In this document: positions 15,738 through 61,066 of the stretch, piece by piece | How positions within the stretch are numbered: the first letter of the stretch is position 1 | Layout of the letters: the number at the start of each line of letters is the position of its first letter | Translations under genes and position numbers: made by a program | Notes under the pieces: model-generated | The model's database searches: none | The model's input: the letters and a program-made list of their open reading frames with translations, nothing else | Told to the model about the DNA's origin: nothing | From: an uncultured Verrucomicrobiae bacterium | GTDB lineage: Bacteria; Chlamydiota; Chlamydiia; Chlamydiales; Rhabdochlamydiaceae | DNA: 64,000 nucleotides | Reading direction: 5' to 3' | NCBI GenBank assembly: GCA_963818965.1 | Contig: CAWFUG010000008.1 | Span: forward strand, 351,401 to 415,400

Positions 15738-16256
15738 ATGACTATAAAGGCAGTTCCAGCAGCCAAAAAGACTGAGGTTTCATTTGATAGTAGAGATGCT
15801 GGGCAAATGAGCGCTTACCTTTCGGCTGTTGATGATCAACTCCGGCATGAAGATGATAGACCAAGCATTGGAATCATCTTATGCAAAACCAAAGATAACG
15901 TTTTCGCTGAATATACCCCTTCCACCTCAATCGTAACCACAAGCAAACCGATTAAAAGCCTCAAATTTCGAATCAAAGGGAGGGGGTTAATATTAATTCA
16001 ATATTACCCCCTCCCTTTGATTCGAAATTTGAGAACTTTTCATTCGGTTTTCTTGGGTACGATTGAGGTGGAAGGGGTATATGTCTTAAGAAATTTCAAT
16101 CGGCCCATAGGAATAGCAGAATTTGAGTTAAAATTAGGTGAAAAGCTACCAGAAGATTTAAAAGCAAGTCTTCCCACAATAGAAGAAATTGAAGCTGAAC
16201 TAAGTGTAAAACCAGAAGAGCAGAAAAAACCTAAAAAGAAGAAGAACGATACCTGA
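15738..16256 (+). pseudogene. C-terminal fragment of a DUF1016/YhcG PD-(D/E)XK protein with a 56-aa in-frame insertion
   Basis: DAGQMSAYLSAVDD...PSIGIILCKTKD..AEY[insert]VLRNFNRPIGIAEF...LPTIEEIEAEL; N-terminal part absent. Confidence 0.8.
15914..16079. mobile_element. Palindromic MITE, type B (166 bp, TA duplication)
   Basis: 22-bp perfect TIR TACCCCTTCCACCTCAATCGTA; 28-bp inner stem; TA at 15912-13 and 16080-81. Confidence 0.9.
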
Positions 16257-16477
16257 CCGGGCACAATATAAGTTGTTTCAAACTTTGGCGTGGAACCCGC
16301 GAACTCCACGGAATTTACGCAGCAGCTGGTGCGTGATGACAAAATGTCAAAGTTTGTAAACTCGAGAAAAACTCTGTAAAACGTCTGATCCACAATAATA
16401 TTTTCCAAGAGATCGGTGCAATTATTTCTTGGTTCAGGTATCTTTAAGAACGAGAATTTCCTCAGGAGAACGTGTCT

Positions 16478-17188
16478 ATGAAAAAGCAATTGCGCCCCAT
16501 CTACTACGATACAGAGACGACGGGGATTCGCTCTGATAAAGATCGGATCGTCGAGCTCGCCGCTTATGATCCTGTGGAAGAGCGCACCTTTTGTCAGCTC
16601 ATCCAGCCAGGAATTCCGATCCCTCCCGAGGCGACGGCGATCCACAAAATCTCCAATGAAATGGTGGCCAATGCGCCTCCCTTTGAAGTGGTCGCACGCG
16701 ATTTTATAGCATTCTGCCCTGAAAACACGGTGCTTATCGCCCACAATAACGATGCATTCGATAAACCCTTCATGGAAACGGAATTTAAGCGCGCTAAAGT
16801 CGACTTTCCCTTTGCGACCTTCATCGATTCGCTGAAGTGGTCACGCCGCTACCGCAACGATCTCCCGCGACACACGTTGCAATTTTTACGAGAGGTCTAT
16901 GGCTTTGCTGCGAACCAAGCCCACAGAGCTTTGGATGACGTGATCATCTTGCACCAGGTGTTTTCGGCAATGATCGACGATCTGACGATGGAGCAAGTCC
17001 TCCAACTCCTCTCGAAGCCTCAAGTGCTCACGCGCATGCCTTTTGGAAAACACCAAGGAAAACTCCTCTCAGAGATTCCTAAGAGTTATGTCACCTGGCT
17101 AGCGACAAGTGGTGCCTTCGATAAAGCAGACAACCAAGAGCTGAAAGAGAATTTTGAAAAACTGGGACTTTTGGTTCCAAGTAGTTAA
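16478..17188 (+). CDS. dnaQ: DnaQ-like DEDDh 3'-5' exonuclease with C-terminal MPFGKH domain
   Basis: YDTETTG, AHNNDAFD and HRALDD motifs; AGGAG RBS. Confidence 0.88.
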   Translation: MKKQLRPIYYDTETTGIRSDKDRIVELAAYDPVEERTFCQLIQPGIPIPPEATAIHKISNEMVANAPPFEVVARDFIAFCPENTVLIAHNNDAFDKPFMETEFKRAKVDFPFATFIDSLKWSRRYRNDLPRHTLQFLREVYGFAANQAHRALDDVIILHQVFSAMIDDLTMEQVLQLLSKPQVLTRMPFGKHQGKLLSEIPKSYVTWLATSGAFDKADNQELKENFEKLGLLVPSS

Positions 17189-59911: not shown

Positions 59912-59974
59912 TCAGTAGCTCGATTTTAGAAAATAGCATAGAATAACACATGCCTTCAGAGCAAAGGATTTTAG

Positions 59975-61066
59975 ATGCAAGTACAGATACTCTCTTTACA
60001 TAGCTATAGATTACCTCTGACAAATGGGATCATGCGCTGCGGCATTTGGCTGCGCCTCGTCACAAGAGAGGGAAACATCAGCTGGGGTGACGTCGCTCCC
60101 CTCCCCTCTTTTATACTGCGCCCGGTCAGGAATTGCGCATTTGAGCCTTTGATCAGCTCCCGCGATTCCACGATCGAAAAGGGAGCCAGTATTGAGGAAA
60201 TACAGGCCCCCTTTTCGATCGTGGAATCCCGGGGCTTTGACGCGCTCAAATGCGCAATTCCTGACCGGGTGCAGTATAGTCGAGAGAGCTTGAAAGATGC
60301 GCTCGAGGAACTAGAGCAAAAAAGAGAACAGATCTTAGCGATCGATTGGACACTGGAAAATTGTCTAGAAACGCTCGAGCAATTAGATCTCCTCCCCTCT
60401 AGCTCATTTGGACTAGAATCTGCGCTTCTCTCCCTTCTCGATCCGCTTCCTGGCAAGTGCGTTGTTCCGACGAGCGCTCTTCTCATGGGCTCCTGTGAAG
60501 AGATCCAAAAATGCGCAGAGCTCAGGCATAGGGAGGGGTATACCTCTGCCAAACTCAAGGTAAACCAACTGAGTCTGCAAGAAGCGGCGCGACTCATCCA
60601 CGCACTTAAGGGACTTTTTCGATTGCGCATCGATGTCAACCGCGCGTGGACCACAGCCGACTCGCTTCAGTTCTTCTCCCAATTTTCGCTAGATACCTTC
60701 GACTATGTGGAAGAGCCTTTCCAAAACCCTCATGACCTGGCGCAATTCCCGCATCCCCTGGCCATCGACGAGTCTTTTCCTCGAGATCTTTCCCTCGAAC
60801 AACTCAGCACCCTGCCCACCCTTAAAGCCCTCATCTACAAACCGACGATCCAAGGAGGAATGCTTCCCTGCCTTCACCTACAGAAGTGGGCAGATGAGCG
60901 GAGCATCGCACTCGTTTTGAGCAGCAGTTTTGAAAGCATCATCGGCCTAGGCCATATCGCTTCCCTGGCACAGCGCCTCCAGCTCCTCTCCCCTATCGGC
61001 ATCGGGACTTATCATTATCTAGATACCGCTCTTCCAAGGGCTTGTAATACACCGGATAGTTGTTAG
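59975..61066 (+). CDS. menC: o-succinylbenzoate synthase with a 55-aa in-frame insertion
   Basis: WGDVAPLPSF[insert]SRESL, KLKV, RIDVN, YVEEP, AIDES, YKP and LSSSFES motifs all intact. Confidence 0.88.
   Translation: MQVQILSLHSYRLPLTNGIMRCGIWLRLVTREGNISWGDVAPLPSFILRPVRNCAFEPLISSRDSTIEKGASIEEIQAPFSIVESRGFDALKCAIPDRVQYSRESLKDALEELEQKREQILAIDWTLENCLETLEQLDLLPSSSFGLESALLSLLDPLPGKCVVPTSALLMGSCEEIQKCAELRHREGYTSAKLKVNQLSLQEAARLIHALKGLFRLRIDVNRAWTTADSLQFFSQFSLDTFDYVEEPFQNPHDLAQFPHPLAIDESFPRDLSLEQLSTLPTLKALIYKPTIQGGMLPCLHLQKWADERSIALVLSSSFESIIGLGHIASLAQRLQLLSPIGIGTYHYLDTALPRACNTPDSC
60114..60276. mobile_element. Palindromic MITE, type A (163 bp + TA = 55 codons), in frame in menC
   Basis: 33-bp TIR with 1 mismatch; TA at 60112-13 and 60277-78; empty site would be TTT AGT (Phe-Ser). 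Confidence 0.96.

Follow-up and report, generated by a model that had tools for sequence, protein, structure and literature searches.

A number of short, palindromic repeat families that carry no gene have been described in bacteria. RUP (repeat unit of pneumococcus), as described in PMC2229807, is 107 bp long, targets TA, has stops in all six frames, is intergenic, and is associated with an insertion sequence (IS), IS630-Spn1, whose ends its own resemble. The RPEs (Rickettsia palindromic elements) of an intracellular bacterium are long stem-loops of 105 to 146 bp, not all of them TA ended; by the accounts in PMC2229807 and PMC10969869, nearly half lie in genes, and they can be fused in frame into conserved enzymes. 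ERIC/IRU repeats (127 bp) of enterobacteria are portrayed in PMC2759123 as stem-loops with TATACCC...GGGTATA ends, TA duplication, and occasional in-frame fusion. YPAL (RU-2) of Yersinia, 167 to 168 bp long, contains a 56-codon frame and forms in-frame fusions (PMC2759123, PMC2229807), and it is characterized in PMC2229807 as being without TA ends and making duplications of 3 to 26 bp. REP/REPIN palindromes, in the description of PMC3733652, cluster beside their transposase, RAYT, and some are intragenic.

Here, we analyzed a 64-kb window (C8:351401-415400) of a chlamydial genome (G000, the local genome; 2.24 Mb in 12 contigs, 88% complete) that contains TATAC-ended palindromes of ∼165 bases. 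We treat the source as an environmental chlamydia, since chlamydial labels are attached to look-alike elements and to MenC homologs. We refer to their types A, B, and C, together with their relatives, as the A/B/C family. Like RUP, these elements are gene-less, target TA, and have IS630-like ends and an IS association; unlike RUP, they are rods of 162 to 168 bp whose pairing runs from one end to the other, they have matches in two IS630 clades, and sometimes they stand in frame. The likeness to RPEs that had been proposed in the initial annotation holds for the in-frame insertion of a stem-loop but not for length or sequence kinship, as the insert peptides had no match in NCBIfam at E values up to 1. 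The NCBIfam library includes RPE models. Furthermore, A/B/C elements have an IS630 partner and are in frame in 13% of copies, whereas the RPE account in PMC2229807 names no matching IS. YPAL is comparable in length, frame, and fusions but differs at its termini, as A/B/C elements have TA at 304 of 340 ends. With REP/REPIN, the A/B/C family has in common that its palindromes cluster next to a transposase and that some are intragenic. In contrast to REP/REPIN, it has TATAC ends and no GTAG/CGTC tag, and in place of a Y1 transposase (PF01797) it shows TA duplication and a candidate DDE enzyme. By analogy, the family appears to work like RUP with IS630-Spn1 and to behave like RPE. A/B/C is a phylum-wide family of a known kind, the gene-less TA palindromes (compare RUP, ERIC, and RPE), to which we add a candidate intact transposase, a single core found between the ends of divergent IS630 clades, and the docking of IS at element ends. 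Our literature search, whose coverage left out most subscription journals, found no publication on the family.

Elements in the window and their host genes

All five hairpins previously reported to be flanked by duplicated TA were confirmed, with their positions and both TA copies (Table 1). The family model also matched an internally deleted member that had been overlooked, which is intergenic, between rpiA and the next gene.

Table 1. Repeat elements in the window and further palindromes of the local genome (window positions unless a contig is named;., strand unassigned)
Feature	Position	Strand	Net length (nt)	Remarks
Type B element	15912-16081	.	+168	Both TA included
Type C element	17445-17612	.	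+166	
Internally deleted A/B/C member	28361-28455	.		Family-model match, E 9e-8
Hairpin D	30835-31002	.		GAACCT...AGGTTC ends; upstream of groES
Mini type A	42630-42676	+	+45	
Type A element A1	52925-53091	.	+165	
Half type B (left half)	56818-56868	+		
menC (o-succinylbenzoate synthase)	59975-61066	+		Single copy
Type A element A2	60112-60278	+	+165	
ACCACAGAG-core hairpins	3885-3954, 13484-13567, 30649-30752, 49770-49859, 53097-53169, 57618-57742			
Further 160-170-bp palindromes	G000:C1:37890-38058, C11:347445-347608, C11:18446-18610, C1:312616-312777			

Four of the five hairpins had been placed in open reading frames, three of them adding 168, 45, and 165 nt in frame. The lengths stand, but four in five is not representative of the family, and the three insertions are not alike. 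A2 is a clean 55-codon in-frame insertion in menC and the only clean 55-residue insertion into an intact gene in the window. The encoded protein gains exactly 55 residues over an 83%-identical homolog and retains all residues that are invariant among 55 homologs. In an AlphaFold model of the insert-bearing MenC, the fold was kept (mean pLDDT, 83) and residues 48 to 93 were unstructured; the model is uninformative on the fold of the insert itself because the insert has no alignment depth. For the loop of MenC that received the insertion, a literature search gave no relevant paper. Mini-A lies in frame within the gene of a P-loop/Q-salvage protein (41908-44055), where it supplies 15 codons in place of 11 other residues of a 40%-identical ortholog, a net gain of about 4. 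For the type B element, the reading frame is kept only because its host is a truncated remnant of yhcG (15738-16256), which corresponds to profile positions 81 to 128 of 157 and is the sole yhcG match in the genome. The type C element, as the initial annotation had observed, is one base off, and in the assembled sequence it disrupts the frame of the gene in which it lies (17209-18928). This gene is without a Pfam match and has, by eye, an F-box-like start. A1 is intergenic and starts 2 bases past the higA stop codon.

Several other features of these genes and of the window were observed. The product of 41908-44055 joins a zeta-toxin-like P-loop domain to one for queuosine salvage, and its P-loop reads GNT where homologs have GKT or RKS. 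P0115 and P0005 comprise another chlamydial MenC, whose independent 54-residue insert has a TATAC-type start and a different core, and a protein from another assembly, which bears a type A insert. Two tandem 770-residue paralogs with no Pfam match, 80 to 98% identical in DNA blocks, occupy 47220-52327, and the stretch 9173-10652 is a region of gene decay that contains 54-base repeats. The window had no Rfam family at gathering score, and A/B/C copies from four loci gave only subthreshold generic hairpin matches.

Hairpin D had been described as similar to these elements. It has different ends, no TA duplication, and no match to the A/B/C family model, and it is a separate repeat family outside A/B/C. 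An IS in another genome (L038 in G034) has ends resembling those of hairpin D. At least four further families of 160- to 170-bp palindromes in the local genome likewise differ in their ends and lack a TA duplication. Another hairpin family, also abundant, has a ACCACAGAG core (151 merged BLAST hits in the genome), and the terminal 22 bases of its long form are identical to one end of an IS at C9:266878-268005, which makes another MITE-IS pair. This IS has an open DDE_Tnp_1 frame, and we take it to be IS903-like. At three or more loci of genome G046 (L185, L188, L189), a multicopy IS630 (1,144 bp) is located within a MITE of another, nonpalindromic kind, ∼165 bp long.

Target site duplication and insertion into genes

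Merged searches yielded 138 A/B/C elements at 130 loci in the local genome. Several contigs repeat stretches of others (C4, C5, C6, and C7 versus C12 and C8), and C4 is partly an inverted duplication, so a few of these loci may be double-counted (e.g., C7:69327 and C8:17965). A strict scan for paired ends (TATA[C/G]...[G/C]TATA) found 85 elements in the genome, 60 of them with a net length divisible by three, while reversing the genome left 3. When the seed was placed inside the TA, so that the outer TA did not belong to it, the search returned 340 ends, of which 304 had the outer TA. Both the excess over the reversed genome and the unseeded TA argue that the elements are not due to chance. 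The TA duplication, as claimed in the initial annotation, was further confirmed by comparing empty and filled sites. A second repeat family has a fixed site with a single TA in at least 19 empty copies, and in two copies this same site is filled by different element types with TA on both sides; a filled LRR gene also shows the duplication relative to its empty paralog. At the protein level, AroA has 55 residues more than PDB 2qfq and four relatives. The elements are shorter than 500 bp, with terminal inverted repeats and no transposase gene. They are real, nonautonomous elements that duplicate TA. We also paired solo ends located 0.4 to 3.7 kb apart, but these enclose ordinary genes and no transposase.

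To place the copies relative to genes, we used a home-made gene caller (1,722 genes, 83% coding), which missed at least three hosts (the host at C9:363390, the yhcG remnant, and the host of the type C element). By these predictions, 28 of the 130 loci are in genes, 2 are at stop codons, and 100 are intergenic, whereas 73% of all TA sites lie inside predicted genes. Insertions of the family are thus strongly depleted in genes. In a curated list that leaves out the type B copy in the yhcG remnant, 18 of the 138 copies (13%) are in frame and free of stops, including three within 40 codons of the first start and one with a weakly supported host. The host genes include aroA, menC, plsX, recC, pepF, sulP, a tRNA methyltransferase gene, and an ABC-2 permease gene, of which aroA, menC, plsX, and recC are single-copy genes. 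The inserts in menC and aroA are clean, and those in plsX, sulP, and the tRNA methyltransferase and ABC-2 permease genes also read through; a histidine phosphatase gene and a TylF gene are broken by elements. In both short inserts that we checked against orthologs (mini-A and the one in plsX), about 11 to 12 host residues were lost. Full copies were in frame for 8 of 23 type A elements and 0 of 21 type B elements (P = 0.004), which agrees with their respective chances of an open frame (0.44 and 0.06). The aroA gene of the local genome (C11; L016:770-2230) is only 28 to 37% identical to aroA of five relatives, compared with 51 to 57% for plsX, which suggests that aroA was horizontally replaced.

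The initial annotation regarded the family as peptide donating. Under this explanation, length and open frames would be kept by selection to build new protein loops, to the benefit of either the host or the element's own spread. Net lengths of 162, 165, or 168 in 62 of 101 copies from relatives, in 30 of 53 subfamilies, and in 36 of the 53 full copies other than those in frame point in this direction, although these counts of multiples of three are not independent, since length is inherited among related subfamilies. Subfamilies with such lengths also have more open frames than the others (0.24 versus 0.11), and single-copy aroA, menC, plsX, and recC all bear inserts. However, most loci are intergenic, few copies are in frame, and across the 53 subfamilies open frames (0.19) barely exceed those in two shuffles (0.14 and 0.13). 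The in-frame inserts are read in three different frames and in both orientations, and only 5 of the 101 copies from relatives scored as in-frame inserts, a floor given that many flanks were short. We therefore regard peptide donation as a character of the family as unlikely. Host filtering of insertions at TA would instead account for the pattern: frame-breaking copies in genes would mostly be lost, and survival in a gene would require an open frame and a net length divisible by three, a combination that type A often offers and type B seldom does. The 55 added residues would then be a tolerated loop and not a selected domain.

Conserved structure and symmetry of the arms

Types A, B, and C, one further local type, and copies from relatives can be aligned end to end, with covariation at 57 of 70 pairs (51 sequences), and among 141 genomes of the phylum a covariance-model search detected the family in 46, which bears out the earlier grouping of the types into one superfamily. 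In family f20, whose listed genomes are 1.0 to 1.2 Mb, 0 of 26 genomes had A/B/C elements. A pattern scan of species genomes gave at least 117 loci; among the 80 listed, 64 have a chlamydial label and 16 another label or none. The 119 pattern matches in relatives comprise 101 two-ended copies, 93 of them with TA, and the net lengths have their peaks at 162 and 165. The conserved parts are the TATAC end, an internal motif that forms a bulge (GAAAGCTCCCG opposite CCCGGGGCTTT), and the apex, TATT...AATA, while end positions 6 to 15 vary freely in sequence and retain pairing. As the internal motif belonged to the scan pattern, the scan itself accounts in part for the conservation seen in relatives; in the local genome, where full copies were found by their ends, it is one-sided in 35 of 42 non-B copies. 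At several loci of other genomes (L265 and L276 in G234; L306, L308, L313, L314, L316, and L319), family-type ends are followed by unrelated interiors, in line with an exchange of cores and ends.

The two arms of the elements evolve together. The outer 32 bases have 40 private changes, of which 26 were mirrored on both arms, 13 were one-sided, and 1 was discordant; the apex was inverted in 6 of 21 scorable copies. Template switching is described as yielding both arm homogenization and spacer inversion (PMC8604942), and switching by a polymerase may be what keeps the arms of A/B/C elements complementary. We rejected a mobilization process in which one arm serves to regenerate the other, as type B has at least five arm mismatches that are kept in all 21 near-identical copies; transmission of these mismatches indicates that mobilization copies both arms. 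The GAAAGCTCCCG/CCCGGGGCTTT motif and the apex withstand homogenization, and they may thus be read by a protein in the course of mobilization, either the transposase or a host factor.

The covariation could also mean that the conserved fold acts as RNA, by affecting how stable an mRNA is or how RNase III processes it, as reported for ERIC and Correia elements, and RNA-level effects are described for other MITEs in PMC2229807 and PMC10969869. Such a role seems quite unlikely here. Arm mismatches of the G-T and A-C kinds are equally frequent (67 each), giving no strand bias and hence no sign of one strand folding as RNA, and the covariation consists almost entirely of Watson-Crick double changes, as template switching would give. 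In addition, A/B/C copies prefer no particular arrangement of flanking genes, and none reached the gathering score of an Rfam family.

We also examined a possible kinship with ERIC, which shares with the A/B/C family TATAC...GTATA ends, TA duplication, a stem-loop, and occasional in-frame fusion. An ERIC-like repeat between rpsB and tsf in E. coli (L193:353-375) has a 14-base internal motif in common with the chlamydial core, which points the opposite way relative to the end (E = 0.59 for the motif match). BLAST found no counterpart of type A in the genomes and plasmids of E. coli, nor did the A/B/C family model match at the rpsB-tsf copy, a single degenerate one, and homology beyond the short motif was rejected.

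IS630 transposons and the ends of the elements

We searched 400 genomes with one IS630 protein (L042) as bait, which enriches the resulting IS set for this group, and found IS of 1.15 to 1.21 kb with TA-TAC ends. L042 itself, the first lead, was dropped, as its end match was not significant (P = 0.06 and 0.44). All eight proteins tested matched the NCBIfam IS630 model, seven of them above the cutoff. After 11 of 47 IS loci without a usable motif were set aside, 11 of the 36 scored had right ends matching a MITE end at 22 to 24 of 28 bases, a range whose lower bound was reached by 1 of 3,000 random TATAC-led sequences. Ten of these 11 were in the tree, where they form two sister clades (support, 99/93 and 91/91) that are ∼28 to 35% identical to each other; five outgroup IS630 rows scored at most 19. 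The type A end matched that of L232 at 24 of 28 bases, and C-type ends matched those of L168 and L234 at 22 to 24 of 28. These matches speak for the mobilization in trans by an IS630-family enzyme that had been proposed from the window.

The initial annotation called for an IS630-family transposase with matching ends. In the local genome, at its 88% completeness, no IS630 domain was found at E = 0.001 and no PF13358 match; there is only a short, frameshifted relic (C9, ∼237,660 to 237,880) that adjoins a decayed B-like copy. A set that looks intact is present in a relative, genome G400, which has seven IS630 copies that are 99.3 to 99.7% identical, with a 343-codon frame in all seven copies listed. 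One of their right ends has 18 of its first 19 bases in common with MITEs of G400 itself, and another has 19 of 21 bases in common with type B. The G400 transposase looks like an intact and recently active candidate.

The G400 copies also adjoin A/B/C elements. Their right sides abut an element end or end remnant in 7 of 7 cases; on their left sides lie MITE ends or remnants (five), the end of another IS (one), and a short end-like stretch (one). In a 20-kb control, element ends were found at 17 per 1,468 TA sites. In the local genome, GTA stands beside the TA at 26 of 304 element ends, compared with 1.2% of TA sites. Existing element ends may thus be favored landing sites for MITEs and IS alike.

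We consider it very probable that A/B/C elements are MITEs of IS630-family insertion sequences and are moved in trans. A transposase supplied by such an IS would bind the outer 26 to 28 bases of each end, excise the element, and insert it at TA, leaving the TA duplicated. Some observations do not sit easily with this explanation. The local genome has no intact IS630 even though the copies of type B, with 0.6 differences per 32 bases from one to another, give the impression of being young, and IS630 presence does not track the elements across relatives, being found in 5 of 14 element-positive and 8 of 27 element-negative ones. The IS630 cutoff was passed in 9 of 29 element-bearing genomes, and 8 of 22 genomes picked mostly for IS630 had no MITE match. 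IS ends were no closer to MITE ends of the same genome than to those of other genomes (14.8 versus 14.6 of 28), in a small sample in which several MITE ends were miscut and from whose IS rows G400 was absent. Finally, no counterpart of the hairpin core was found inside IS630, so the origin of the core is not accounted for.

These points could be taken to favor a different enzyme, one that reads a folded single strand (HUH/RAYT, IS110, or a PD-(D/E)XK nuclease), with an incidental match to IS630. Many high-copy genomes lack IS630, the outer stems vary freely around a conserved bulged core, and the local genome contains two genes that are presumably IS110-like. On the other hand, it contains no Y1 transposase (PF01797) and no PDDEXK_2 domain (PF12784), and the symmetric ends, the TA duplication, the IS630 end matches at 22 to 24 of 28 bases, and the same-genome pair in G400 make this alternative highly improbable.

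A further, tentative possibility within the IS630 explanation is that the core is a portable module that adopts the ends of whichever IS630 clade is active and that MITE and IS each land at the other's ends. If so, the MITEs would shelter the transposase gene while the IS supplies the enzyme, and a length divisible by three would cut the cost to the host. The arrangement would be a DDE counterpart of RAYT-REPIN and could serve as a model for the mobility of RPE- and ERIC-like palindromes, which was described in 2007 as being without experimental support (PMC2229807). The A/B/C family, present in about a third of the sampled chlamydial genomes, behaves similarly to RPE and ERIC, and for this family there is a candidate enzyme, which in G400 appears to be intact and to have been active recently. 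By putting 55-residue loops into single-copy enzymes, AroA and MenC among them, it also provides a natural survey of insertion tolerance.
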